A stretch of 32,000 nucleotides of DNA from Microcystis aeruginosa NIES-843 (GTDB lineage Bacteria > Cyanobacteriota > Cyanobacteriia > Cyanobacteriales > Microcystaceae), in contig NC_010296.1 of NCBI RefSeq assembly GCF_000010625.1, positions 5,670,001-5,702,000 of the forward strand, in the 5' to 3' direction. Within the stretch, counting starts at the first letter, position 1, and each line of letters opens with the position of its first letter. Positions 10,025 through 30,203 of this stretch are shown here, in pieces. The notes under the pieces were generated by a model. That model was given only the letters and a program-made list of their open reading frames with translations. It did no database searches and was not told the DNA's origin. The translations under genes and the position numbers were made by a program.

Positions 10025-10105
10025 AAATGGAAGAAAATCCCCAAAAAGCGATAATTGCCGGAAAATCGATCGTATAATCAATGTCGATTTGAGAGAATTA
10101 CCCCT

Positions 10106-11815
10106 ATGAATTATCGCATTGATCGCCGCACCTATGCAGAAACCTACGGCCCCACCGTCGGAGATAAAGTTCGCCTCGCAGACACGGAATTATTTATCGA
10201 AGTCGAAAAAGATTTCACCACCTACGGCGATGAGGTAAAATTCGGCGGCGGTAAAGTAATTCGCGATGGGATGGGCCAATCCCCCATTTCTAGGGAAGAT
10301 GGGGCGGTAGATTTAGTGATTACTAATGCCTTAATTCTCGACTGGTGGGGCATCGTTAAAGCCGATGTGGGCATTAAAGACGGCAAAATTTATAAAATCG
10401 GTAAGGCGGGCAATCCCCACATTCAAGATAATGTCGATATTATTATCGGTCCTGCTACCGAGGCATTAGCTGGGGAAGGGATGATTTTGACAGCAGGGGG
10501 GATTGATGCCCATATTCATTTTATCTGTCCCCAACAAATTGAGACAGCGATTGCGTCGGGGATTACCACAATGATTGGTGGCGGGACCGGACCTGCAACG
10601 GGAACTAATGCCACCACCTGCACCCCGGGAGAATGGCACATCTATCGAATGCTAGAGGCGGCCGAAGCTTTCCCGATGAATTTGGGTTTTTTGGGTAAAG
10701 GCAATAGCAGTCAGCCGGAAGGACTAGCGGAACAGGTAAAAGCGGGGGTAATTGGCTTAAAACTCCATGAAGATTGGGGAACCACTCCGGCAGCCATTGA
10801 TACCTGTTTAAGCGTGGCCGATAAGTACGATGTGCAGGTGGCGATTCATACCGATACTCTCAATGAGGCCGGTTTTGTTGAGGCCACTATCGCCGCTTTT
10901 AAAAATCGCGTCATTCACACCTACCACACGGAAGGAGCCGGTGGTGGTCATGCTCCCGATATTATCAGGGTTTGCGGGGAAATGAACGTTTTACCCTCCT
11001 CTACCAATCCCACGCGTCCCTATACGACGAATACCTTAGAGGAACACCTCGATATGTTGATGGTTTGTCATCATTTAGACCGGAGTATTCCCGAAGATGT
11101 GGCTTTTGCTGAATCCCGCATCCGCCGCGAAACTATTGCCGCCGAGGATATTCTCCACGATTTAGGGGCTTTTAGTATAATTTCCTCCGATTCTCAAGCG
11201 ATGGGACGGGTGGGGGAAGTAATTATCCGCACTTGGCAAACTGCCCACAAAATGCGGGTACAACGGGGCAGACTGACCGGGGAAACGGGAGAGAATGATA
11301 ATCTGCGAGCAAGACGATATATTGCTAAATATACGATTAATCCTGCTATTACCCATGGTGTCTCCGATTATGTCGGTTCCATCGAGGTGGGCAAATTAGC
11401 CGATTTGGTTCTCTGGAAACCGGCATTTTTTGGCGTAAAACCGGAAATTGTCCTGAAAGGCGGTTTAATCGCCTGGGCGCAAATGGGCGATGCTAATGCC
11501 AGTATTCCCACACCCCAACCGGTTTATATGCGTCCCATGTTTGCCTCTTTTGGTGGTGCGATCGCCAAAACTTCCTTGACATTTGTTTCTAAATATGCTA
11601 TGAAAGCGGGCATTCCTGAGAAGTTAAAGCTGAAAAAAACCGCCGTGGCCGTGTCGAATACGCGCAATATCAGTAAGGCTAGTATGAAGCTTAATGACGC
11701 TTTACCGCGCATGGAAGTTAATCCCGAAACCTACGAGGTGCGTGCTGACGGGGAATTATTAATCTGTGAACCCGCTACGGTTTTACCCATGGCCCAACGC
11801 TATTTCCTATTTTGA
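10106..11815 (+). CDS. ureC: Urease alpha subunit
   Basis: [30 protein letters not shown]... with [18 protein letters not shown] and MVCHHLD motifs. The ATG at 10106 fits the conserved UreC N-terminus better than the track start at 10055. Confidence 0.95.
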
Positions 11816-12747: not shown

Positions 12748-12903
12748 CTACTTATCAAATTTAGCCAAGATTTTCAATCCTTCTTCTGGGTTGCCATTAG
12801 CTGCCATTTCCTTAAATCTAGTATAGGCATTAAATTCGGCTAAAGTGTTGGTGGAAAGATATTCAATCAGTTTATTGATACTGATTCCTTTTAGTTCATT
12901 CAT
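12748..12903 (-). CDS. Small hypothetical protein (51 aa), translationally coupled to the upstream TumE-like ORF
   Basis: My own translation is MNELKGISINKLIEYLSTNTLAEFNAYTRFKEMAANGNPEEGLKILAKFDK*. Its ATG overlaps the upstream stop in an ATGA arrangement at 12900-12903. Confidence 0.4.
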   Translation of the reverse strand: MNELKGISINKLIEYLSTNTLAEFNAYTRFKEMAANGNPEEGLKILAKFDK

Positions 12904-13225
12904 AGAAAACTCCTGATTCTGGCGGTAATTTCCTGAAGAACTTCTAAGAGCGTTGGAGCAGCGGACGAGATTACATTTTCTTCACTGCTGTCATGTTTGT
13001 GATGGGGATAGGTTGGGAGGTTCAGCTTTTTATGATGTGGAGTATTATCATAACGGAAAATTAAGGTATTCATGGTATTCATATACTGATAAGCGTACAT
13101 ATTACGATTAATAAAACTGAATTATCAATGAATTTAATTTCGGCTCGAATAAATCCTTCGTAACTATCGCGTTTTTCACAATCTAGCGTAAAAAATTTTA
13201 TTACTGAACAGGTTGCGAGAATTGT
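12900..13225 (-). pseudogene. DUF6516/TumE-like gene, apparently frameshifted
   Basis: The C-terminal part (track 12900..13100) contains LIFRYDNTPHHKKLNLPTYPHHKH. The expected N-terminal part (...CEKRDSYEGFIRAEIKFIDNSVLL) is in another frame immediately upstream. The switch lies around 13105-13125. Confidence 0.45.
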
Positions 13226-13247
13226 TTAAATCTGTTGAAAATAATCT

Positions 13248-13511
13248 TCAATTAACAAATTCAATTCCTCTGAGTCTTTCTGCTTTTTCCTGTAGGCATT
13301 GTAGCATTCGCAATTCGCCAATCCATTCGTCAAGTTCCAGGGTTTCCTGAAATTCGTCGTTTTCGTAGCGATGCAGAAATTCTGCTGTGGACAGTTGATA
13401 TTTGTCCTCAAATTCTCGCAGTCGTTGTTCGGTACGCTGGATACCCGCTTCAGTGGAACGTAGGGCTTCAGCGATTGCGCCTTCGATTAGAGGTTTGAGG
13501 GAGCCGGAGTG
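13248..13511 (-). pseudogene. Small helical antitoxin-like protein lacking its start (5' end abuts an inserted element)
   Basis: My own translation is ...SGSLKPLIEGAIAEALRSTEAGIQRTEQRLREFEDKYQLSTAEFLHRYENDEFQETLELDEWIGELRMLQCLQEKAERLRGIEFVN*. The track ORF 13226..13411 is in the wrong frame. Confidence 0.5.
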
Positions 13512-13868
13512 TTGACATCCTCGCCGCCCTAAAAGTGCGGCGATTCCTAAACCTCACGATTTAAGTTTCTGCTTCCACCACCGTCGCATACCACAGTTAA
13601 AAAACCATGTACTGTCTTACACAGAGTCCACAGACTTTCGCCCCATTTCAGAAGCCCGATTCCGTGTGTCCCACGGTACGTTGACCGCCTATAGCTTCTT
13701 GTACTTGTTGCGCGCGACTTTTTACCCGGCCAAGCTTTTCTGGTCGGAACCCCCTAAGCCGAGTTTTCAAGGTGCTGCGCCGTCCACTTGGTTTTCGAGA
13801 CTGGCCTTTTAATTCTAACGTAAAGCCAACCTAGAACGGCGGGGTTTCAGACCCAAAATTTCCGATGA
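13509..13868 (+). mobile_element. Decayed non-autonomous copy (C1) of an IscB/RRXRR-like element
   Basis: It shares its ends with 18491-18951 read on the opposite strand. The 5' hairpin is cgccgccctaaaagtgcggcg, against ccccaccctaaaagggacgggg in C2. The 3' end is gtaaagcc...ggcggggtttcagacccaa, and it also shares ttctaacg. Confidence 0.45.
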
Positions 13869-14090
13869 GAGATGAGTTTGAGTTCCTTCATAATAGGAAG
13901 TCTTGTAGCTACTTTTGCATTATAGACAATTGCTAAGATATCCAGAGGGCGCAGGTTGCTTGTGCCGCTACACTAGACCTCTCCAATAATTGTCAAACTA
14001 AGGGCTGAAGTCCTTTTGATCTATGGTCAATTTTTGGGTTCATTTTTTCTCTTTTCTCCTTCTCTCTCAGATTATACTTTTGACTTTTGA

Positions 14091-14367: not shown

Positions 14368-16441
14368 CCCACATTCCGCACCCTCAACTGTCACATAAGC
14401 TGTCCCCCTCCAGAGACTTGAGTAAAAATACCTAGCTGGTGAAGGTTTTCTCGGTGGCCGCTAGGGGGGTCTTGAGACCCCTAATTATGAAAAAATAGGA
14501 ATTGTTGGAAAACTGAGGCGAGTGGACTGTTCGACCATGAATCAATCAACAGAAATTGAAGTCAAAAATCTAGACCATCTGGGATTAGTAGCCGGAATTA
14601 TCGATGAAATAGGAATCGTTGAAATTATCAACGAACAAGTCTCAATTGAGCGAGGAGAAATTGTCACAGCGGGGCAAGTCGTGAAAGCAATTATCCTGAA
14701 TGGATTGGGATTTGTCTCCCGAGCCTTGTATTTATTTCCTCAATTTTTTGAAGATAAAGCAACCGAACATCTGCTGGGAGAGGGCATCGAACCAAAACAC
14801 CTGAATGATGATAAAATTGGTCGAGTAATGGACAAACTTTATCAACTTAATGTTTCGGTCATTTTCCTACTGATTAGTTTAGCCGCCGTGAAAAAATTTG
14901 GTGTAGCAACCGAGAACTCCCATTTAGATTCGACTTCTCTATCAGTAGAAGGAGAATATAAAAAGGAATACCCAACAGTAGAAATCCTGAAATCAGGAGC
15001 AGTGGGAGAAGAAATTGAAACCGGACAACAGCCAATAAAAATTACCTACGGATACTCCCGCGACCGACGACCTGACTTAAAACAATTTATGATTGACTTA
15101 ATCGTAAGTGGGGATGGAGATGTACCTTTATTCCTGAAAGTAGGGGACGGAAATGAAGCGGACAAAGCGGTTTTTGGTCAAATCGCCCGAGAATTTAAAA
15201 AACAAGTTGACTTTGACAGTTTAATAGTCGGCGATAGCGCCCTCTATAGCAAAGAGAATTTAAAACTAATGAAAGAAATGCGTTGGTTGTCTCGAGTACC
15301 ATTAAGCATTAAAGAGGCTCAAGAGTTAGTCGATAGCATCTCAGAAAAAGAGTTAACCGATTCAGAAATACCGGGTTATTCCTGGCGGGAAACAAGCTCT
15401 AACTATGGGGGGATAGAACAAAGATGGTTGCTAGTTGAAAGTCAAGCTAGACAAGAATCAGACTTGAAAAAATTAGAGAAAAAAATCGAGCAGGAAAAGA
15501 ATTCTGCCCAAGAAAAAATCCGGCAACTATCCCGAAGAGAATTTGAGAATAGAGCGGTGGCGTTGGCGATAGCCAAAGGATTATCTGACTCCTTAAAATC
15601 TCATCAGTTAACGGAGATTAAAGTCAATCTCATTCCGCCTGAGTCCCAGGGGTCAAAACTCAAATCAAAAGACGATTTACCCTCTCAAAGCTATCAAGTT
15701 CAAGCCAAATTAGAGTTGAATTTGACCGCCATTGAGAGGCTAAAGAAACGAGCAGGACGATTCGTTTTAGCAACTAACGATTTGGAGAAAAAACGATTAA
15801 GCAGTGAGGATATACTCAAAAAATATAAAGGGCAACAAGCTCCGGAAAGAGGATTTTCTTTTCTCAAAGACCCCTGCTTTTTTGCCCACAGTGTCTTTCT
15901 CAAATCTCCCCATAGAATCGAGGTCATGGCCATGCTCATGGGCTTGTGCCTGCTGGTTTATACTATTGGTCAAAGACAACTTCGTTTAAGTTTAAAACAG
16001 CAGGAGACGGGACTGAAAAATCCGTTGGGTAAGTTAACTGACCGACCAACATTACGCTGGATATTTCAGAACTTTCAAGGGATTCATCTCCTACGTATTC
16101 AAGACAATCAAAAGATTAGCAACTTAACGGATGAGAGGCGCAACATTTTGAGATTTTTCCCCAAACCTTGCCAAGAATATTATCTCTTATCTTGACCAGA
16201 TGGATTGACTTCAAGGGGTGACAAAACAAAGCGAGCAACTGGAACATCTCCCCCTAGATGTTAAGTCTGATTGCCTAGTCATTCTCAACAAGCACTGTTT
16301 ATTGAGAATGACTGGGGGAACTCTGAAATTTTCGGCTTAGTTGCCGGCAGCTTGCCGCCAACTCACTCCTCTAGATAAGTATTTTGACTCGCGCCCCTTC
16401 CTCTTTTGAGACGTTGTGACACTTAGGGTGCGGAATGTGGG
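14368..16441 (+). mobile_element. IS1634-family (IS4-related) insertion sequence, about 2.07 kb
   Basis: Terminal inverted repeats are cccacattccgcaccct(caac)tgtcaca at 14368 and its complement ending at 16441. They enclose a 557-aa transposase. No target duplication is visible. Confidence 0.8.
14522..16195 (+). CDS. IS1634-family transposase
   Basis: The N-terminus is ...VKNLDHLGLVAGIIDEIGIVEIINEQV. Length is about 550 aa. GTG at 14522 or ATG at 14537 could be the start. Confidence 0.8.
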   Translation: MDCSTMNQSTEIEVKNLDHLGLVAGIIDEIGIVEIINEQVSIERGEIVTAGQVVKAIILNGLGFVSRALYLFPQFFEDKATEHLLGEGIEPKHLNDDKIGRVMDKLYQLNVSVIFLLISLAAVKKFGVATENSHLDSTSLSVEGEYKKEYPTVEILKSGAVGEEIETGQQPIKITYGYSRDRRPDLKQFMIDLIVSGDGDVPLFLKVGDGNEADKAVFGQIAREFKKQVDFDSLIVGDSALYSKENLKLMKEMRWLSRVPLSIKEAQELVDSISEKELTDSEIPGYSWRETSSNYGGIEQRWLLVESQARQESDLKKLEKKIEQEKNSAQEKIRQLSRREFENRAVALAIAKGLSDSLKSHQLTEIKVNLIPPESQGSKLKSKDDLPSQSYQVQAKLELNLTAIERLKKRAGRFVLATNDLEKKRLSSEDILKKYKGQQAPERGFSFLKDPCFFAHSVFLKSPHRIEVMAMLMGLCLLVYTIGQRQLRLSLKQQETGLKNPLGKLTDRPTLRWIFQNFQGIHLLRIQDNQKISNLTDERRNILRFFPKPCQEYYLLS

Positions 16442-18490
16442 TTGAAAGTTATTTGAGGCAACCTCACCCGATCGCTCTAACCGATTGACCGCAAGGATCG
16501 TTTCCTGTTCCTCCTGCGCCTGTTGCAACGCTATCTCTGCCTGTCGCGCCGCCCTTTCTGCCTTTTGCTGCTGGGCTGCAGCAAGTCGGAACTGCTGCTC
16601 TGCTGCCACCTTATCCCGTTCTGTGGCTGCCCTATCTCGGTTGACTTGAGCCAACTGCGCCGAGGCTACCAGTACCCGTTCCTGTGCTTGTAGGTATTGC
16701 TGCTGGGCCGATCGCGCTTGGTTTTGTGCCTGCTGGAACTTGCGATCGGCATCCTTTAGCTTTCCTCGCGCTACTGAGAGATTTTTCTGGGCTAATTTTT
16801 CCTTTCCCCTCGTCTGGCGCAAATTGCTATCTAAAATAATTTTGTCTTGCTGTAACTTCCTTTGGTCTGCTAATAATCTCAGTTTGTCGCCGTTCAGTTT
16901 TGTGATATTGGTTTGGGCAACCCTGAAATTATTCGTTGCCTTTATCGAAATAGGAACGGCAATAGCAGCAATGGCAATAGCTCCCAATGCCCCCAACAAA
17001 CTAAGCTTATTGCGTCGATTAGCTTTTTTGATGATTCTGCCGGATTCCTCCCTTGTTTCTAATAATGCTTGGTTCGCTGTTTCTAATTCTGTTTCCGCCT
17101 GTTCCCTCGCCGCAGTCAAAATCTGATTCGCTTCCGTTTCCGCCGCCAATCGCCTTTCCATATCCCGTTTTTCGACATCCTGGCTATCATCTAAAAAGCG
17201 TTCATCTTCTTTACTCAAGCGCTTTCCTTTTGCCCAAGTCTCCGCCTCCCGCAACGCCTGTCCCCGCAACAAAAACGACTCTTTCTGCTCTTCTTGTGCC
17301 TCCTGCCAAGCCTTAAACGCCTCCCCATAAAACCCCGGACGCAAATCCGCCAAAGCGCGAGCCACCCACTGCCCATTAAACACCTGCGCGTAGATGGGGT
17401 TATAGACTTTCAACCTGCCCTCTCGCTTCACCACCAAACCCGTCAGCCGCAGTTGCAGTTGCTCGTAGCTCTCATCGGCAATGATCCCCCCTTCCTTTCT
17501 GGATGAGAGAGGGGGGGGTTCAGCATCCAAAACTTGCTGATAAATCCCTAGCAGTCGCCCCCGTAGCCGTTCGTCACTGCGTAAAATCCTGTCTCGAATC
17601 GTTTTCAAATGCGGCGGCACGTCCTGCGCCTCCCAATTATCGATAAGCTGGCTCGTCACCACCTGCGCCACCAAATCTGGGGGCGATAGGCGCAAATCTG
17701 CCTCCTGCACTACCAAATTCAAGACCCGCTGCGTCAAAAACGGCTGTCCCCCCGTCCAATACAACACCGCTTGCAGCACCGCCTGCGGATCGTCCACCTT
17801 GCCCACCAAACCCTGCATCAACGGTTGAGCTTCCTGGAGTTGAAAGCCACTCATCTCCACCGCCCGACCGATATTAAACGCCGAACTACGCTTACTGACA
17901 ATCAGATCGGAAGGTGTTGCCACCCCTAAAAACGCAAAAGTCAGCCGCCGATAACGCAGATCTTCCGCCCGCCGCTCAAAGAAAGAGCGAATCAGAATGA
18001 AAAAACCATCGGTATCAAACTTGAGACTGAGCAGGTTATCAATTTCTTCGACAAAAATGACGACATCTTGCGAGAGTTCTGCCAGCAATACGCGATCGAT
18101 AAAATAAGTAAAGCGTTCGACCGCCGAAATCGACTGAGCCGCCAGATCCTTCCACCAACTCGAAAAATCGATTTTCTCTTGTAAATGCAAATCATCGATC
18201 AAGCGTTTTATGGTTCCGGCATACCACTGATCCTCGCTCAAACTGGTTCCCCGGGTTTGCGGGTCAATGACCGCACAAGCCACCCCCTCTGCCGCTAACT
18301 TCTGCATCACCCGCACCCGCAAACTAGACTTGCCCATCTGCCGCGAGTTAAAGACAAAACAATATTCTCCTGATTTCAGGCGATCGTACAATTCGCGATC
18401 GGCCTGTCGCTCTACATACCCACGATATTCGGCAGGTAAGCTCCCGCCTACTTGATAGCTAAAAGGAGTCGAGGAAGTTGGGTTTGTCAT
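16442..18490 (-). pseudogene. AAA-like (pfam14516-type) P-loop ATPase with a TM helix and long coiled coil; 3' end cut by the IS1634-like element
   Basis: [27 protein letters not shown]...[10 protein letters not shown] (Walker A) and VVIFVEEID (Walker B). [21 protein letters not shown] is followed by coiled coil, the TM helix [21 protein letters not shown], and a Q/A/R-rich coiled coil of about 200 aa. The track tail 16337-16441 is IS sequence. Confidence 0.7.
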
Positions 18491-18951
18491 CGAAAAATTG
18501 GGTCTGAAACCCCGCCCTTTAGCGATAGCGGAGGGCGGCTTTACATAAGTCAGTGAGAAACAATTAAACCGTTAGAACGACGAATTAACTGAATCTTGCT
18601 AACGGCTATCTGTCCCAATCGTTGACCATTGGCATCGCTTACAGATAACTGTTTTTCGGTATCTCCACTAACATAACCAATTCCTTTAGGAGAAGAAACT
18701 AAATCTCCTTTACGGAACCCATGTCTTCTGGTAAAGTTAAAGTCCCTTCCCGCAACACAATCAAGATGTCTTGTCTAACAACGCTTTACCAATAAAGCTT
18801 AGAGGGAATCCGAACTAGGGAAGTATTCGGAGGTCTGGGCCAGATTGTGTCTCGATGCGGTAGTCTCTACTTGCGTCGCCTAAATTGGTCTAGGCAAGCC
18901 CCGTCCCTTTTAGGGTGGGGTTAGTGACCTGATAAGCTTAGACGCACTTAC
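18491..18951 (-). mobile_element. Decayed copy (C2) of an IscB/RRXRR-like element with a 74-codon ORF relic and a structured 5' region
   Basis: The minus-strand relic at 18550..18774 has no start codon. It reads [74 protein letters not shown]. This resembles the (K)THxLDAxCVG ... GFxxGDxV ... RxxG C-terminal region of IscB-family proteins, from recall. Its ends match C1. Confidence 0.45.
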
Positions 18952-19022
18952 ATTGCACTTTAATATCCTGGAACGCCTTGTAGATAGGGATACGAGTAGG
19001 AAACTTAAATGCGTCTAAGCTT
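18934..19022. repeat. 13-bp perfect inverted repeat aagcttagacgca / tgcgtctaagctt separated by 63 nt
   Basis: Read directly at 18934-18946 and 19010-19022. It overlaps the presumed 5' boundary of C2. Confidence 0.7.
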
Positions 19023-19047
19023 ACCAAGTTGCTAAAAATATGTCCCA

Positions 19048-19078
19048 GAAAACGGATTTCTTTAAGAAACCCGTTTTC
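19048..19078. terminator. Variant of the gaaaacgg...ccgttttc hairpin family, downstream of xisI
   Basis: Stem gaaaacgg/ccgttttc with a 15-nt loop, located 8 nt beyond the xisI stop. Confidence 0.55.
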
Positions 19079-19085
19079 TAAGAGG

Positions 19086-19421
19086 TTAGGCGATCGCGTA
19101 GCCCGTGTAACCGCGTACATCCGCCGGATGAAAAGCGAGGACAATATCCTGCCGGGGAACACCCGCCGCCACTAGCTCATGGGTTACTCCGTCTTCGGTT
19201 TCATCTCGTTGTACCCAGATTTTCTCGTTGATAATATCCAAATGAATTAAACAGCCATGCACGCGAGTTTTGCGATCCCATCCGAGCGTCATCAAAAGAT
19301 AGCTATCTCGAACTTCATCAAAAATCGGCTTACAAATCAATTCGCCGTGAGAATAAGGGATTTCAGTATAAGGAATCAAAACCGATTTAATAATATGACG
19401 ATACTGATCTAATTTTTCCAT
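19086..19421 (-). CDS. xisI: XisI protein (fdxN-element excision controlling factor family)
   Basis: 111 aa. MEKLDQYRHIIKSVLIPYTEIPYS...KIWVQRDETEDGVTHELVAAGVPRQDIVLAFHP. It overlaps the xisH 3' end by 13 nt. Confidence 0.85.
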   Translation of the reverse strand: MEKLDQYRHIIKSVLIPYTEIPYSHGELICKPIFDEVRDSYLLMTLGWDRKTRVHGCLIHLDIINEKIWVQRDETEDGVTHELVAAGVPRQDIVLAFHPADVRGYTGYAIA

Positions 19422-19918
19422 TGCGAAATGACCTCCTTTTCAGCATCAAAAACAATAAACTTGAGATTTTCATCTTCGATTAAAATTTGTCCGATTGGCT
19501 CTTCAAAAAATGAATTATAAATCACATCTCTAATCGCCAAATATAGTTTATAATCAGGATAAGAACGACGCAAAACAGCCCGATAGATCGCAAACTGTCC
19601 AATCGCATCACGACAGGCTTGTAATTCTGATTCCCCCAGAAAGCTTTTAACTTCTACAGCAATTTTTTGCTCCAATCGCTCTGCTAATATTAGCTTTTTA
19701 GCCCCCAAATCGACGTACATATCTTTTCGCCCCCAACGGAGATGAAACGGATCGTGCGTGATCGTCCACCCATCTTTAATCAGGGCTTGCTTCGCAGCAT
19801 TATAGTCATTTCAATTAAGATTGAGAATATCAATGCCAGAGTTCATAAGGGTTTAACTGGTCTAGAGTGTATCAGACTTATCTGAAATGACTATATGATA
19901 CAGATCGAGAGCGGGCAT
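19409..19918 (-). pseudogene. xisH: xisH interrupted by a 91-bp MITE after codon 8
   Basis: MPALDLYH (19918-19895) is followed by the MITE, then NAAKQALIKDGWTITHDPFHLRWGRKDMYVDLGAKKL... Removing 19803-19893 and one TA restores a 138-aa in-frame XisH. Confidence 0.85.
19803..19893. mobile_element. 91-bp MITE with perfect 10-bp terminal inverted repeats (tagtcatttc / gaaatgacta) and a TA target duplication
   Basis: TA is present at 19801-19802 and at 19894-19895. TA targeting resembles IS630/Tc1-mariner-derived MITEs. Confidence 0.85.
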
Positions 19919-19979
19919 AATGGACTAAGTTAGCATAAACGACTAGATAAATAGACAATAGACTGTAAAGTGTTTTTAT

Positions 19980-21596
19980 TTAATTTCCTCCCAAGCGATC
20001 GCAAAAATCCTGACGATAAAGATCGCAGCGAGGTTTCACATTATTATCAACCCGCACCACTAATCCCATACTGTCCAGTTTAAACGACTCCTCAGACCGC
20101 AAACGTACCGGCGCTTCAGAAGTAATAACCAATTTCATGGCTGCCCCCAGTTCAGGATAATCTTCCAAAGTCTTCAAATGTCCCCGCAGATAATCGCTGT
20201 AAATTCCCGCTTCTGTGGGAGCCGTCCGCAAAAATTCCGCCAAAGAAAGATCCCCCGCTGCAATGTGATAGAGTGCCGAGCGCACCATGTAGGGATGCCC
20301 TCCAATTAACCCCATAAATTGTTCGAGTTCCCCCTCTGTCCAAGTTAATCCGTGCCGTGCTACCAACTCCTGTACCTGTTCAGGCGTAAACTCTCCCAAT
20401 TCGATGGGCAACCCCACATTAAAAGGCGATTGATTGATATCCCGTTGGGCATAGGACTCTTGAGAATGGACGATGATCAGCCGCAATTTCTGCCACAGTT
20501 TTTTAATCTTGGAACTTTCATGCCAGCCGCGCAATAATCCGCATAAATCCGTCTCGATATCTGCGTATTTAAAGATGCGATCAAAGTTATCGATCGCCAA
20601 CACCAACGGGCGATCGTCCCCCTCTAATAAATACTTCTCAAAATAATCCGTACTGTTATCGTTCGCTCCAAAAATATCATCCCAATACTCTTCAATCTTG
20701 ACCCTTACTCCTAGTGGTTTACCCACCGACGCACAAAACCACTGCATGAACTTGTCGAGATCGTCAAAGAACTTTTGATTGGTCTGTTCCAGATCGATCG
20801 TTACCGCACGATAGCCTAGTTGAGATGCTTGGGCAAGTACCTTCGCCATCAGGGACGATTTGCCCATATTGTGGGGCGATTTAATCCGAATCAGGGAGCC
20901 AGGCTTTTGAATTTCCTCATAGCACCGTTCTTCGTAAGGGGAAGTAATATAAAAGCGAGAGTCAATGCTAACTTGTCCTTCTGGAGATTCCAAGCTAATT
21001 TCCTGTTGTATCTTGTCTGGAGTAACTGTTGGCTTGAGGGGTTCCGATTGCGTTGGCATCTCAGTGGCTTTTGCGGATTGTTGAGGCTCTGGCAAGACAG
21101 TAGGCTGTTTATCAGTTAACACTGTCGCCATTTCCATTGCCGCGTGGCGAATCCCCTTAGCAATATTTAAAAACGCCTCACCCCGATTACTCCAAGTCGT
21201 CACAGGCTTGGCATTTTTTGGCAAAGCTTGCAACTTACCAAAAGGCGCACCACTCCAATCCACCGGCTTCAAAATAATCGGAATCACCCGCGCCTCCCCC
21301 GCATCATGCCGTGCAATCGCCCGTTCCATTTCAAGATCATAACAGTAGTCAGAAGCGATAAAGTTTTCACTAATCAACAACAGAATAATCTCGGCTGAAT
21401 TGAGATTTTCATCAATGGCTTGTTTCCACTCTGTTCCAGCACTAATTTTGCGATCGTGCCATGATTTAATCACTCCCTGTCTTTGTAATGACGCGAGGTG
21501 AAGTCCCAAAGTTTCCCGCAGTTTCTCATCCCGGTGAGAGTAAGAAATAAATACATCGAGCGGTGTGGATGATATGTCTGGATTAGGTAAAATCAT
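19980..21596 (-). CDS. TIR domain fused to an AAA-like (pfam14516-type) ATPase
   Basis: 538 aa. The N-terminal TIR reads DVFISYSHRDEKLRETLGLHL...ILLLISENFIASDYCYDLEMERAI. The ATPase part reads RFYITSPYEERCYEEIQKPGSLIRIKSPHNMGKSSL (Walker A), LVLAIDNFD (Walker B) and INQSPFNVGLPIELGEFTPEQVQELVARHGL. Confidence 0.8.
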   Translation of the reverse strand: MILPNPDISSTPLDVFISYSHRDEKLRETLGLHLASLQRQGVIKSWHDRKISAGTEWKQAIDENLNSAEIILLLISENFIASDYCYDLEMERAIARHDAGEARVIPIILKPVDWSGAPFGKLQALPKNAKPVTTWSNRGEAFLNIAKGIRHAAMEMATVLTDKQPTVLPEPQQSAKATEMPTQSEPLKPTVTPDKIQQEISLESPEGQVSIDSRFYITSPYEERCYEEIQKPGSLIRIKSPHNMGKSSLMAKVLAQASQLGYRAVTIDLEQTNQKFFDDLDKFMQWFCASVGKPLGVRVKIEEYWDDIFGANDNSTDYFEKYLLEGDDRPLVLAIDNFDRIFKYADIETDLCGLLRGWHESSKIKKLWQKLRLIIVHSQESYAQRDINQSPFNVGLPIELGEFTPEQVQELVARHGLTWTEGELEQFMGLIGGHPYMVRSALYHIAAGDLSLAEFLRTAPTEAGIYSDYLRGHLKTLEDYPELGAAMKLVITSEAPVRLRSEESFKLDSMGLVVRVDNNVKPRCDLYRQDFCDRLGGN

Positions 21597-22553: not shown

Positions 22554-23772
22554 AGAACTCTTGCAAATTAATTATATGTTATAATGATGGGTTAACTAAT
22601 TTTCCCCAAAAAAATTAGTTAATCAGTACATTCGTCCTGAATGAAAACTTGAAGTTTAACTTTTAACTCAAAACTCTTTAGAGCTGCTTTAATTTGGTTA
22701 TCAAAACCTCTTTATTTAAGCGGCACAAACTATCTCAATTTTTATAATTGAGAATAAATTCTCCTTGACTTGATTAATCTTTAGGCAACTTTTAAGAAGC
22801 TGCTATACCTATCCCTAACTCACAGTTATAAATAGCCGCCAACAAGTTAACTCTTAAACTATATCTTCGACGACGATTCCGATATTTACAGGATAAGATT
22901 TTAAAGATTTTGAGTTTCCTATTTATATGTTCAATGATAATCCTTTCTTTGGCTAAAGCCTTGTTATACTCTTTTTCTAACTCTGTTAATTTTCTATTTT
23001 TCGATTTCTTTTTCGGTGTATAACTATTACTATGGTATGCAGCTATTCCCTGATAACCACTGTCTTCTATGCTGGTAGTTAAAGGATGAAAACGAACTCG
23101 ACTTTTTTTAAATAAACTAAAATCATGACCTCTACCTTTCCCACAAAAGACACAGATAATTTCCTCGGTATTTTGATCAGCTACTAATTGGGATTTTAAA
23201 GTATGATAACCTCTTTTACCCCCCAAAAAATCTTTCTGTTTCTTTTTGGGGCGTTCAATGGGAGTTTCCGTTACATCCATTACCGTTACGACCGGTATCT
23301 CTGCTTGATTTAGTAGAGCTTTTTTTCCTTTTAAACGGAAGTTTCCCGATTGTAAAAGCATTTTTTCCGTCTTATTTACAATCCGACATATAGTTGATTC
23401 TGATAGTTCCCAGCTTGTACCAATGTGAAAATATGTTCTATATTCTCGCCAATATTCTAACGTTACTAAAACTTGTTCTTCTATAGATAGTTTAGGTTTC
23501 GGTCCCCTTTTAGATGGTGAATTAGAGTCGGCTTCAACACTTTTTACTGATTCTACCATCTTTCTATAGGTTTGTTTATACACACCGAAACGGCGTTTGA
23601 ATTGTTCATCTGATAAGTTTTGATAATCCATAATTTTGCTAATAAACATAGCAAAATTATAGATGATTTCCTGACCTAAGATCACATTTTATTCTTTTTT
23701 CCACTTCAATCTAAGAATTGAGAAAAAAGCAAAACCTTATATTATACCATAAAAAAATTATGCAAGAGGTCT
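22554..23772 (-). mobile_element. IS5-superfamily (DDE_Tnp_4 / Harbinger-like) insertion sequence, about 1.2 kb
   Basis: Imperfect terminal repeats are agaactcttgcaaa... at the left end and agacctcttgcata... (complement) at the right end. ATT flanks both ends and may be a 3-bp duplication. Confidence 0.65.
22792..23631 (-). CDS. DDE_Tnp_4-type transposase
   Basis: MDYQNLSDEQFKRRFGVYKQTYRKMVE (HTH), then VTVMDVTETPIERP, GRGHDFSLFK and ERIIIEHINRKLKIFKIL. The ATG at 23629-23631 is preferred over the longer track start. Confidence 0.75.
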   Translation of the reverse strand: MDYQNLSDEQFKRRFGVYKQTYRKMVESVKSVEADSNSPSKRGPKPKLSIEEQVLVTLEYWREYRTYFHIGTSWELSESTICRIVNKTEKMLLQSGNFRLKGKKALLNQAEIPVVTVMDVTETPIERPKKKQKDFLGGKRGYHTLKSQLVADQNTEEIICVFCGKGRGHDFSLFKKSRVRFHPLTTSIEDSGYQGIAAYHSNSYTPKKKSKNRKLTELEKEYNKALAKERIIIEHINRKLKIFKILSCKYRNRRRRYSLRVNLLAAIYNCELGIGIAAS

Positions 23773-26512: not shown

Positions 26513-28500
26513 CCCGCATTTCTCACAAAAAGTACGATCACCAACCCCCGAAGCCTTACAAAATCTGGGTTTTGACTGGGTGATCGCCTTGTAGCAAAAA
26601 CGACAGTGTGTTGTTAGGATTCAACTTAAGCTCATCATCAATTAGACCTTGAAAAAAGAACAAATTTAAAATGCGTATTTTTAGGTTAATTAGTTGATAA
26701 AGTCTCAATTTTAAGTAGAGAATGAAGTCAAAAGCTTGCTATAATTTAATCATTAAAACTATTTAAAGTATGTCAAGTTTATGACTCCTAGTTCAGACCA
26801 GTCTCGACTCAATCAATTAAATTTTGGAAACCTCAATGGAAGACAAGTAATCGCTAATTTTGAGGGAGGAAAAATCACCTCAGATGCAGGAATTATTTTG
26901 ATGGCAGAGTTAGACCAAAAGCTAAAAATAACGGCTCGGTTTGCCGAATGTTTTCGAGATTATCGAAATTCATCCTATCTAGATTATTCAGTTCATGAAC
27001 TACTCGCACAAAGAGTTTATGGGATAGTTTTGGGATATGAGGATGTCAATGATCATGATAAATTACGTCATGCTCCAGCTTTAGCAATAGCATTGAAAAA
27101 ACTAAATTTTATTGACTCAGCCCAAGCAAATTTAGCGGGAAAAAGTACAATTAATCGACTAGAATATTGTCCGGAAACAGTCATCAATCAAGAGAACAGT
27201 CGTTACCATAAAATCGAGCCTAACCCCAAAGAAATTGAAAAAGCTTTTGTGGACATCTTTCTAGAATCCTACAAAAAGCCACCGAAACCAATTATTTTAG
27301 ACATGGATGTCACCGATGACCAAGTGCATGGAAATCAAGAGGGAGCGTTTTTCAATACTTATTATAAAGGAGTGTGTTATGCTCCTTTGTATATTTTCTG
27401 TGAGCATCATTTATTAGTAGCTAAACTCCGGTCTTCTCATGTAGATACTGCTGGGGGAGCATTAGAAGAATTGCAGCGAATAATCGGTATAATTCGAGAA
27501 AAATGGTCAGATACGCAGATATTAGTACGAGGAGATAGTGCCTATTCCCGTGAAGATATCATGAAATTTTGCGAAAGTCAAGCAGGAGTTGATTATGTTT
27601 TAGCAATGGCAACGAATAGTCAATTAAAATTACGAGCGACCGATGTAATTGAGAAAGCTAAGGCAGATTACGAGCAAAGACTTCAGCCAGTTACTGAATT
27701 AATGGAGACGTTATTTTCTCCCGATGAAGAGTTAGGAGAATTGGCGAAATTGGTACCAGAATCGACTTGGTATCGTTCCCTATGTTATCAAACCCAAAAA
27801 TCCTGGAGCCGTTCAAGAAGAGTGGTGACAAAAGTTTGTCCTGGTAGTGAGGGCGTAAAAATTCGCCACGTTGTGACTTCTTTACCTGCATCAAAGATTC
27901 CCCCATCTAAACTTTACACTGAAAAATATTGCCCCAGAGGTGAGAGGTCAAATCGAATTAAAGAGCAACAATTAGACTTATTTGCTGACCGGAATTCGAC
28001 ACAGACATTTGAGAGTAATCAATTAAGACTTTGGTTGTCATCAATGGCTTATGTTTTAATGCAAGCTTTTCGTCAAAATTGTTTGGCTAAAACTTCTTTT
28101 GCCAAAGCGACAGTGGGAACAATTCGCCTTAATTTCCTTAAATTAGGAGCTAGAATTACTGTTAGTGTCAGAAGAATTTTAATCGCAATTGCCAGTTCTT
28201 GTCCCTATCAAGATATTTTAGCGATAGCTTACTCTAGAATTCAAGCGATAGCGGGAACTGGATAAGTTGAAGAGTTTTCAAAGATCATTAAATAGTCTTA
28301 AAAATGGCTGCTTATAAATTCAGCTAACTTTGTCGTGAACATTTTCCCTAATTGACGGAATTTTTCCAGTAATTCAGGAATTTTTTGATTAGTTTAGTCA
28401 GATTATTCCTTGATAACTAAGCGGGTTTCTCTTATTTTTGAAAAACACCAACTTTTAACCTCCAAATTAGGTTCTTAATTCAGTTTGTGAGAAATGCGGG
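26513..28500 (+). mobile_element. IS1380-family insertion sequence, 1988 bp, with a 4-bp target duplication
   Basis: 17-bp perfect terminal inverted repeats are cccgcatttctcacaaa (26513-) and tttgtgagaaatgcggg (-28500). CAAA is present at 26509-26512 and 28501-28504. Confidence 0.9.
26781..28265 (+). CDS. IS1380-family transposase
   Basis: 494 aa. FEGGKITSDAGIILMAELDQKLKI...LLAQRVYGIVLGYEDVNDHDKLRHAP and IKEQQLDLFADRNSTQTFESNQLRLWLSSMAYVL are typical of IS1380 transposases. Confidence 0.85.
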   Translation: MTPSSDQSRLNQLNFGNLNGRQVIANFEGGKITSDAGIILMAELDQKLKITARFAECFRDYRNSSYLDYSVHELLAQRVYGIVLGYEDVNDHDKLRHAPALAIALKKLNFIDSAQANLAGKSTINRLEYCPETVINQENSRYHKIEPNPKEIEKAFVDIFLESYKKPPKPIILDMDVTDDQVHGNQEGAFFNTYYKGVCYAPLYIFCEHHLLVAKLRSSHVDTAGGALEELQRIIGIIREKWSDTQILVRGDSAYSREDIMKFCESQAGVDYVLAMATNSQLKLRATDVIEKAKADYEQRLQPVTELMETLFSPDEELGELAKLVPESTWYRSLCYQTQKSWSRSRRVVTKVCPGSEGVKIRHVVTSLPASKIPPSKLYTEKYCPRGERSNRIKEQQLDLFADRNSTQTFESNQLRLWLSSMAYVLMQAFRQNCLAKTSFAKATVGTIRLNFLKLGARITVSVRRILIAIASSCPYQDILAIAYSRIQAIAGTG

Positions 28501-29107: not shown

Positions 29108-30203
29108 TAATACATAAAAAAACGAAGCAGCAGGAAAATACAATGAGATTGATTAGAGACCTAAACCCCGAGAGCCAGAAAATGCTAGAGAGAATTTATC
29201 GAGCTAGTAAACATCATCAAGTAAGAGAGCGAGCGAAATGTATACTCTTAAGTTTTCAGGGAACCACGATAGAAGAATTGAGCGGAATATTTGGAGTTAC
29301 GAGAAAGACCATCTATAATTGGTTGACGGCCTGGGAAGATAGAAAACTAATTGGTTTTTATAATCGTCGAGGAAGAGGGAGAAAACCTAAATTGACAGAA
29401 GCCCAAGGTCAACAAGTTATTGACTGGGTAAAAGAAGAACCGAAAAGCTTAAAAAAAATCCAGATAAAAATTGTAGAAGAAGGGAAATTAACCGTAAGCA
29501 AAGACACGATAAAAAGACTCATAAAAAAAATCAACATGAGGTGGAAAAGGGTGAGAAGAGGGGTCGCCAAAACCCCTGATGAGTGGGAGCTTGAGGTCAA
29601 ACTACCTATTTTAGAAGAACTAAAAAAACAGGAAAAAAGAGGAGAGATTGAGATAGGATATTTGGATGAAATGGGAGGGGATTCAAAGCCTTGTATTCCT
29701 GACGCTTGGCAAGAAGAAAAAACCACGATAAAGTTACCACCAATTGAAGGTAAAAGACTAAATATTTTAGGAATAATGAAACGAGATAATCAATTATTTT
29801 ATGAGACACAGGTCGGAACGGTTACTAGCGAGATAGTTATTAATTTTCTGGATAAATATTGCCAAAATATACAGAAAAAAACTGTCATAATAATTGACCA
29901 AGCTTCCATTGATACCAGCGAGGCATTTATGGAGAAACTTGAGGAATGGGAAAAGAAAAACTTGAAAATATTTTGGTTGCCCACTTATTCACCTCATTTA
30001 AATTTAATTGAAATATTATGGAGATTTTTAAAATATGAATGGATTGAATTTAGCGCCTATAAAGACCGAAAGAGCCTCCTCGCTTACGTTAAAAAAGTGC
30101 TGGACAATTTTGGAGGCGAGTATGTAATTAATTTTGCCTAGGTACTTAACGCTCTAAAGCAACTTGAAAGGGTGTCGGCACAGGTGCAGGAGAATTCATA
30201 TTA
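29108..30203 (+). mobile_element. IS630-family insertion sequence (boundaries tentative)
   Basis: The transposase ORF is flanked by weak terminal repeats taatacat.../...catatta, each adjoining a TA. The size of about 1.1 kb fits IS630. Confidence 0.45.
29143..30141 (+). CDS. IS630-family (DDE_3) transposase
   Basis: 332 aa. The HTH is TRKTIYNWLTAWE. It also has GYLDEMGG, IIIDQASIDTS and WLPTYSPHLNLIEILWRFLKYEW. Confidence 0.85.
   Translation: MRLIRDLNPESQKMLERIYRASKHHQVRERAKCILLSFQGTTIEELSGIFGVTRKTIYNWLTAWEDRKLIGFYNRRGRGRKPKLTEAQGQQVIDWVKEEPKSLKKIQIKIVEEGKLTVSKDTIKRLIKKINMRWKRVRRGVAKTPDEWELEVKLPILEELKKQEKRGEIEIGYLDEMGGDSKPCIPDAWQEEKTTIKLPPIEGKRLNILGIMKRDNQLFYETQVGTVTSEIVINFLDKYCQNIQKKTVIIIDQASIDTSEAFMEKLEEWEKKNLKIFWLPTYSPHLNLIEILWRFLKYEWIEFSAYKDRKSLLAYVKKVLDNFGGEYVINFA

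Follow-up and report, generated by a model that had tools for sequence, protein, structure and literature searches.

An internally deleted ISC1-1_MA (IsrB) copy and a TnpB-lineage PATE with a common transposon end in Microcystis aeruginosa NIES-843

Two short segments, C1 and C2, of the Microcystis aeruginosa NIES-843 genome are very probably decayed or non-autonomous members of two sister IS200/IS605 lineages that have been described for the genus Microcystis. They lie in a window of 32,000 nucleotides (NC_010296.1, positions 5,670,001 to 5,702,000), which is the whole stretch of DNA that was analysed and to which all positions refer. C2 is a copy of the already described element ISC1-1_MA, as demonstrated by its homology, its boundaries, the empty sites, its family and its deletion. 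The element codes for IsrB, an IscB relative that does not contain an HNH domain. C1 is a small protein-less element, which belongs to the TnpB lineage IS605B-1_MA. In an earlier note on the same DNA, both segments had been regarded as relics of an IscB/RRXRR-like element. This applies to C2, with the correction that its parent is an IsrB without HNH and not an IscB, but it does not apply to C1. The features by which the two segments resemble each other do exist; they represent transposon ends, however, which does not prove that both segments derive from an IscB element. The result is genuine but unremarkable, the whole system being already described for Microcystis, and has little import beyond correct annotation.

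Structure of C2 and its intact parent

The element ISC1-1_MA was described in 2016 by Kapitonov, Makarova & Koonin, who reported four copies in M. aeruginosa NIES-843 (PMC4810608). Its consensus ends were given as 5'-GTCA and CGATGA-3' with GT...CG as the true termini, and the target N|ATGA was verified by empty sites (PMC4810608). The boundaries of C2 were set by comparison of copies and empty sites. Its true extent is 18928-18491, whereas previously it had been drawn from 18491 to 18951; positions 18929-18951 are part of an unrelated 87-bp MITE. The element and its parts are the following:

18491..18928, minus strand: C2, a 438-bp internally deleted ISC1-1_MA copy (IsrB-encoding, IS200/IS605 superfamily) with the termini 5'-GT...CG-3'
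18731..18928, minus strand: IsrB omega-RNA scaffold of the HEARO type, 198 of the 215 nt preceding the isrB ATG in the intact element
18899..18920, minus strand: right-end-proximal hairpin CCCCACCC-TAAAA-GGGACGGGG, the first HEARO stem-loop
18731..18736, minus strand: deletion junction with CTTTAC microhomology (intact copy: CTTTAC on the left, CTCTAC on the right)
18550..18732, minus strand: IsrB relic, the last 60 codons and the stop codon, TAM-interacting C-terminal domain
18491..18549, minus strand: left end of C2 as defined by TnpA, with an imperfect palindrome at 18505-18545
18500-18512, minus strand: small hairpin GGGTTTCAGACCC in the left end; the element ends with ...AATTTTTCG

Full-length parent elements with the same termini were found at two loci, one of which (L117) is the very same site in another strain. 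The other one (L088), on an M. ichthyoblabe chromosome, is an intact element of ~1.37 kb comprising a HEARO sequence, a 364-aa ORF with RRXRR only and the same 3' end. Comparison of C2 with L088:1099-2474 by blastn yielded two blocks of 96% identity around a gap of ~930 bp, in which C2 18938-18731 corresponded to L088 1089-1296, and C2 18736-18487 to L088 2225-2474. The first bases of block 1 extend the homology 10 nt upstream of the element; this was attributed to chance, the element boundary being 18928. The supposed loss of the nuclease ORF from C2 was hence confirmed. Lost by the deletion were the 17 nt directly preceding the isrB ATG (TCTTAAGGATTATCTCC, including the Shine-Dalgarno site), the start codon and ~304 codons (1-304) of isrB. 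Its junction resides at a CTNTAC microhomology and reads ...GGGACTTTAACTTTACCAGAAGACATGG.... None of the four other IsrB-class copies (0/4) exhibited this deletion, and C2 is not a multi-copy derivative in the sampled genomes. The proposal that C2 is a MITE-like derivative was therefore abandoned, since the deletion occurred in place and was seen in this strain alone among those sampled.

The L088 protein could be aligned end to end (residues 2-361) with the IsrB of Desulfovirgula thermocuniculi (DtIsrB), whose structure is solved (8DMB; E = 1.7e-42), whereas alignments with IscB structures covered only the N-terminal ~117 residues. Moreover, Pfam revealed RRXRR alone and no HNH domain in the L088 protein and in 10 full-length relatives. 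We concluded that the parent protein is an IsrB, i.e., an HNH-less IscB relative, of which the window keeps only a C-terminal relic. ATGA adjoins every copy of the element; RNA-guided nicking by the IsrB of ISC1-1_MA is putative.

The relic itself is shorter than originally thought. The start-less frame of 74 codons exists (18771-18553), but only its last 60 codons (18732-18553) are derived from the protein, and the peptide THLDCVAG, once held to be IscB-like, is a chance translation of the 3' part of the omega-RNA. The similarity to IsrB was verified by phmmer, which aligned the relic with residues 427-491 of DtIsrB 8DMB (E = 2.8e-4), while Pfam did not assign a family either to this relic or to the relic ORFs of other genomes. 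A word-indexed search with the relic peptide disclosed 42 ORFs, all short (40-130 aa) and none full length, from Microcystis, Nostocales and other cyanobacteria, with identities of up to 98%, the latter being reached by Microcystis relic ORFs. By an exhaustive profile search, proteins of 339-521 aa were obtained, and ten out of ten tested contained the Pfam domain RRXRR and lacked HNH. Many cyanobacterial genomes list such IsrB C-terminal relics, 60-130 aa in length, under the label 'hypothetical protein' (L001:4001-4393, L003:4001-4225), a class of database entries that is explained by these data. Upstream of the relic loci L001, L003 and L100 of other cyanobacteria no HEARO was detected, which gives no support to a recurrent derivative composed of an omega-RNA and a protein tail. 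At L003, a tRNA gene is situated ~430 nt upstream of the IsrB relic.

The guide RNA of C2

The presence of a guide RNA 5' of the ORF, and its far-reaching preservation in C2, had been predicted correctly. A search of the whole window with Rfam at gathering thresholds did not reveal HEARO. A permissive search of 18400-19100 in E-value mode yielded a match to RF02033 (HEARO) at 18928-18736 on the minus strand, which covered the full length of the model (positions 1-211) with E = 9e-6 and a score of 36.1 bits, short of the gathering score of 83 and thus of the membership threshold of the family. Intact L088 gave nearly the same value (36.0 bits), indicating that the lineage as such scores low and that decay is not the cause. 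In three copies with differing upstream flanks, element and match begin with the same base; IsrB-class copies start precisely with GTCAC, corresponding to HEARO position 1, and the sequences upstream of them are unrelated. Compared with scaffolds that accompany an intact isrB, that of C2 shows 96-99% identity; the fold energy of the C2 scaffold, calculated from a single-sequence fold, is unexceptional (z = -1.58).

The hairpin near the terminus of C2 (CCCCACCCTAAAAGGGACGGGG at 18920-18899) is probably also the right-end hairpin of TnpA, and a similar hairpin exists at the equivalent end of TnpB-type elements. The 5' hairpin that had been ascribed to both segments was recovered as far as the loop region CCCTAAAAG near the terminus is concerned, but C1 does not exactly fit the ...CGGGG consensus. 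For IscB elements it has been reported that the omega-RNA scaffold derives from the right end of the transposon, that the guide is encoded by sequence beyond the element, where transcription of the omega-RNA must also begin (bioRxiv 10.1101/2023.03.14.532601).

Insertion site and decay in place

C2 is located directly in front of an AAA_35 gene. The features of the site are:

18487..18490, minus strand: ATGA target site and TAM (host); its ATG is the native start codon of AAA_35
16337..18490, minus strand: AAA_35 gene (AAA-like NTPase; PF14516, E = 2.6e-23), of which the element is now the 5' leader
18935..19021, strand not applicable: 87-bp MITE with 12-bp inverted terminal repeats (AGCTTAGACGCA) and a TA duplication, unrelated to C2
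19043..19083, minus strand: terminator-like hairpin after xisI, also present in empty sites, where ~21 nt separate it from the downstream ATG
Target sequence of C2 (flank and TAM): ...TGCGTCTAAGCTTATCAG-ATGA

Nine Microcystis strains possess the empty site ...TTGGTATCAG|ATGACAAACC..., and in these strains AAA_35 is called from that ATG; AAA_35 orthologues begin at the same codon. The empty site TATCAG|ATGA and the filled site TATCAG-GT...CG-ATGA differ by the element only, without any duplication of the target. It follows from this comparison that ATGA is host sequence and that the element was inserted exactly before the native start codon. C2 therefore abuts the ATG and does not, as had been stated, end about 10 nt away from it. 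In L117, a full-length RRXRR element occupies the identical point (...TTGGTATCAG|GTCACTAACC...). The existence of nine empty sites and of this full-length copy indicates that the ~930-bp deletion of C2 took place at the site itself. The MITE, whose 12-bp repeats are perfect, lies 4 nt upstream of C2 in the flank encoding the guide and is absent from both the nine empty-site strains and L117. A single site thus provides one dated decay series, leading from the empty to the full-length and finally to the MITE-hit and deleted state.

The xisI neighbour of C2 is present in many Microcystis assemblies. It is part of a conserved Microcystis block composed of TIR+AAA_35, xisH, xisI and AAA_35 (window 16337-21596; L109-L118), whose last AAA_35 gene product varies between 344 and >1438 residues from strain to strain and carries WD40 or TPR tails. 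The block looks like a variable locus of STAND-type NTPases.

Probable fate of C2

In our reading, an ISC1-1_MA copy inserted between the leader and the ATG of the AAA_35 gene downstream of xisHI and then lost ~930 bp in place by a deletion via the CTNTAC microhomology. What remained is the omega-RNA scaffold, the last 60 IsrB codons and both transposon ends. A separate 87-bp MITE later split the flank that would supply the guide of the omega-RNA. C2 is most likely an inert relic. If a truncated omega-RNA were nevertheless made by read-through from xisHI, it might be bound by an IsrB encoded elsewhere. Such read-through would be needed because C2 does not contain a promoter-like site of its own, and it would have to pass the hairpin upstream of C2, which has a 19-bp stem and a T-run.

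We also considered that C2 may be a functional stand-alone omega-RNA. Read-through would then generate guide and scaffold, with which an IsrB acting in trans nicks empty alleles, leading to retention by homing, or another target. The close similarity of the scaffold to isrB-linked copies and the integrity of both transposon ends are consistent with this assumption, as is the co-oriented gene upstream, an arrangement typical of IscB elements (bioRxiv 10.1101/2023.03.14.532601). Moreover, stand-alone omega-RNAs working with IscB have been reported, as cited in PMC9581776. On the other hand, the last 17 nt of the scaffold including the Shine-Dalgarno segment are gone, and truncation of the terminal hairpins bearing this segment reduced nicking in DtIsrB (PMC9581776). 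Furthermore, C2 is preceded by a strong hairpin with a T-run, and the deletion was found in this strain only among those sampled. Since the MITE splits the flank encoding the guide and now makes up most of it, the guide no longer matches the wild-type empty allele, and together with the missing 17 nt this makes an activity of the C2 omega-RNA doubtful. Given that a promoter of its own, an unbroken guide flank and the Shine-Dalgarno segment are all lacking, we consider a working orphan omega-RNA unlikely and regard the inert relic as the default.

It is very unlikely that C2 was co-opted to serve the AAA_35 gene as promoter or regulatory leader. Because the element abuts the ATG, every AAA_35 transcript must start in C2 or cross it, which is the argument in favour of such a role. 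However, no sigma-70-like site was found in 18350-19150 on either strand, so the suggestion that C2 could supply the promoter of this gene was not supported; moreover, the ATG-proximal end resembles a weak terminator (hairpin and TTTTT), and the insertion is absent from most strains. It is more likely that the insertion dampens the AAA_35 gene than that it drives it. The weak intrinsic-terminator pattern at this end (GGGTTTCAGACCC followed by AATTTTTCG) occurs at the same position in all copies of the element.

C1, a PATE of the TnpB lineage

The boundaries of C1 were also derived from comparison of copies, by which the previous span of 13509-13868 was corrected to 13512-13864. The segment is composed as follows:

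13512..13864, minus strand: C1, a 353-bp PATE (palindrome-associated transposable element) of the IS605B-1_MA lineage; the strand given is the TnpA/TnpB strand
13512..13660, minus strand: right-end-proximal region with two conserved hairpins and with homology to the TnpB-element 3' end, the part encoding TnpB omega-RNA scaffolds
13800..13864, minus strand: left end, the 3' block in common with C2
13865..13868, plus strand: target site ATGA (TCAT on the TnpA strand)

In the orientation adopted by the earlier note, C1 has the termini 5'-TT...CG-3'. Its near-terminal hairpin is made up of TCGCCGCCCT/AGTGCGGCGA at 13521-13543. Seventeen near-full-length copies were found, most of them 97-100% identical, and 36 distinct flanks were counted in the sampled genomes. 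Unlinked copies thus share an equal internal structure, which identifies C1 as a proliferating MITE/PATE.

The end that C1 does not share with C2 is 88% identical over 65 nt to L026:2799-2863, which belongs to a TnpB element. The alignment with the TnpB element reaches ~150 nt inward and comprises two hairpins, in which 11 of 24 predicted pairs show compensatory changes. These hairpins could equally be an omega-RNA scaffold or DNA hairpins for TnpA; a putative scaffold would be located on the minus strand of the window and read toward 13512. The TnpB elements containing the 19-mer described below are 1321 bp long and harbor an antisense ORF of 396 aa with the Pfam domains HTH_OrfB_IS605, OrfB_IS605 and Cas12f-like TNB. 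Using TnpB as query against C1, tblastn recovered only the last six residues, KQKLKS. For the interior of C1 (~13660-13800, ~140 nt), neither a homologue nor a counterpart in the sampled TnpB copies was found.

C1 is very probably a derivative of IS605B-1_MA that encodes no protein and has multiplied recently. It is probably still mobilisable. As both C1 and C2 keep their two ends, a TnpA provided in trans could still move either of them.

When C1 was removed in silico, MKELKLISH joined HSGSLKPLIEGAIAEAL... in frame on the minus strand, from which it can be concluded that C1 interrupts a small ORF of ~96 aa. A TumE-toxin gene (12900-13100) follows closely downstream of this split ORF, MKELKLISH|HSGSLKPLIEGAIAEALRSTEAG... 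(13150-13511 and 13865-13895, minus strand). Pfam did not assign a family to the first 63 residues of the rejoined product.

Shared ends of two sister lineages

The block at the 3' end, which had been reported for both segments, was confirmed. The window contains two copies of its 19-mer GGCGGGGTTTCAGACCCAA and no more, one at 13838-13856 (plus strand) and one at 18498-18516 (minus strand), against a chance expectation of 0.01. Likewise, the flank TCATCG is present in C1 and C2, where it consists of the terminal CG of the element and the ATGA target site. Apart from an end block of ~45 nt and a short hairpin near the other end, little else could be aligned between the two segments. A scan for the 19-mer, carried out with one genome per species, gave 105 stretches, mostly of Microcystis and Roseofilum. 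In public genomes, 104 copies of several element classes end with ...CCCAA-W-TTTC-N|ATGA, after which the flanks diverge. A specific target, insertion without duplication, subterminal hairpins and the lack of terminal inverted repeats place these elements in IS200/IS605.

The 3' end of ISC1-1_MA is known to be shared with the prolific, TnpB-only IS605B-1_MA, whose tnpB is antisense, and the ends recognised by TnpA are common to both elements (PMC4810608). Following this work, the ends of both lineages would be recognised by a Y1 TnpA in trans, no tnpA gene lying in the window, and insertion would occur without duplication 5' of ATGA. Whether a relic belongs to the IsrB or to the TnpB lineage can therefore not be decided from the signature of the shared ends.

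It is barely conceivable that C1 and C2 are both MITE-like relics of one IscB/RRXRR-like family, each with an omega-RNA at its 5' side. The 3' block, the near-terminal hairpin and the junction CG|ATGA, whose likeness suggested this, belong to ends that ISC1-1_MA is known to share with IS605B-1_MA (PMC4810608). For C1 the idea is already refuted: a HEARO match at E<=10 and IsrB protein similarity are both lacking, its DNA matches the IsrB element by blastn only in the shared 34-nt end, and its other end resembles TnpB elements. In C1, no Rfam family was matched at all, and the supposed peptide traces (GFRDW..NSN) could not be aligned with IsrB by BLASTP at E<=100. Both the covariance-model and the protein comparison were hence positive for C2 and negative for C1. 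The missing similarity to HEARO and IsrB together with the TnpB-like end assigns C1 to the PATEs of the IS605B-1_MA lineage and not to the IscB relics.

Position of the insertions relative to start codons

With ATGA as its target, the IS family could conceivably home in on start codons. At 12 of 29 reconstructed empty sites, the element was located directly before a start-like ATG, defined as an ATG with which an ORF of 100 or more codons begins and which is preceded by an in-frame stop within 25 codons upstream. The same criteria applied to 4.6% of the ATGA sites of these loci overall and, depending on the ORF mask, to 13-25% of the ATGA sites outside long ORFs. The enrichment gave p values from 2e-9 to 0.05 over all comparisons and is not robust to the choice of the null, with p ranging from 1.5e-4 to 0.05 between the nulls compared. 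The over-representation of the family at start codons is suggestive only. It may mostly originate from selection against intragenic insertions. Many flanks following ATGA resemble true N-termini, as for SurE (MKLLVSNDDGI), an epimerase (MKKLLITGASGF) and Tat/Sec signal peptides. In at least one case counted as start-like (L014, CTP synthase), the element actually resides in the 5' leader.

It is rather doubtful that the family indeed seeks start codons in such a way that, after insertion precisely between the leader and the ATG of a gene, a host promoter would drive the outside-encoded guide, omega-RNA and isrB, and that relics like C2 would become obligatory host leaders, perhaps bound by IsrB produced in trans. 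In the literature searched, we found no mention of an association with start codons. The possible coupling of ATGA and start codon is the only forward-looking point of this analysis.

Other elements of the window

Within 16 kb of the window there are four DDE transposase genes (14522-16195, 22792-23685, 26781-28265 and 29143-30141), which represent the families IS4-like with DUF4277, DDE_Tnp_4, DDE_Tnp_1_4 and IS630-like DDE_3. The region is a dumping ground for mobile elements. The Rfam search also yielded a match to 5_ureB_sRNA (RF02514) at 10261-10547 on the minus strand, which with 118 bits is above the gathering score and lies antisense in the gene of the urease alpha-subunit (10055-11815). 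This match most likely reflects conservation of the coding sequence and not an sRNA.

Comparison with known systems

C2 agrees with ISC1-1_MA in its termini GT(CA)...CG, in the insertion at N|ATGA without duplication and in its occurrence in the same genus. The intact relative L088 (~1.37 kb) shows the further properties of this element, namely an RRXRR protein without HNH and a 3' end common with IS605B-1_MA. C2 differs from it by being a remnant of 438 bp, from which ~930 bp including nearly all of isrB have disappeared. Neither the omega-RNA nor the C2 copy was described in the 2016 paper, in which the term HEARO is absent (PMC4810608).

C1 resembles IS605B-1_MA and ISMae10 (TnpB-only, IS1341-like) in its termini 5'-TT...CG-3', in the target N|ATGA and in its right-end-proximal sequence (88% over 65 nt to the 1321-bp TnpB copies). 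It is distinguished from them by its size of 353 bp, the lack of tnpB and the interior of ~140 nt without a detected counterpart.

With the HEARO family RF02033, C2 can be aligned over the full model, including the 5' stem and the hairpin CCCC...UAAA...GGGG, and the match is positioned at the transposon end upstream of an RRXRR ORF, but its score is 36 bits compared to a gathering score of 83. The system most closely related by its protein is the OMEGA nickase DtIsrB (8DMB; PMC9581776), with which the parent protein of C2 shares the domain order and a full-length alignment. DtIsrB recognises the TAM NTGA (PMC9581776), to which the ATGA found here corresponds, and in both systems the omega-RNA lies immediately upstream of the ORF and contains the Shine-Dalgarno sequence in its 3' end. 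Unlike DtIsrB, the Microcystis element has a scaffold of ~215 nt instead of ~260 nt, on which the HEARO model aligns with one internal stem-loop missing, and its activity is putative.
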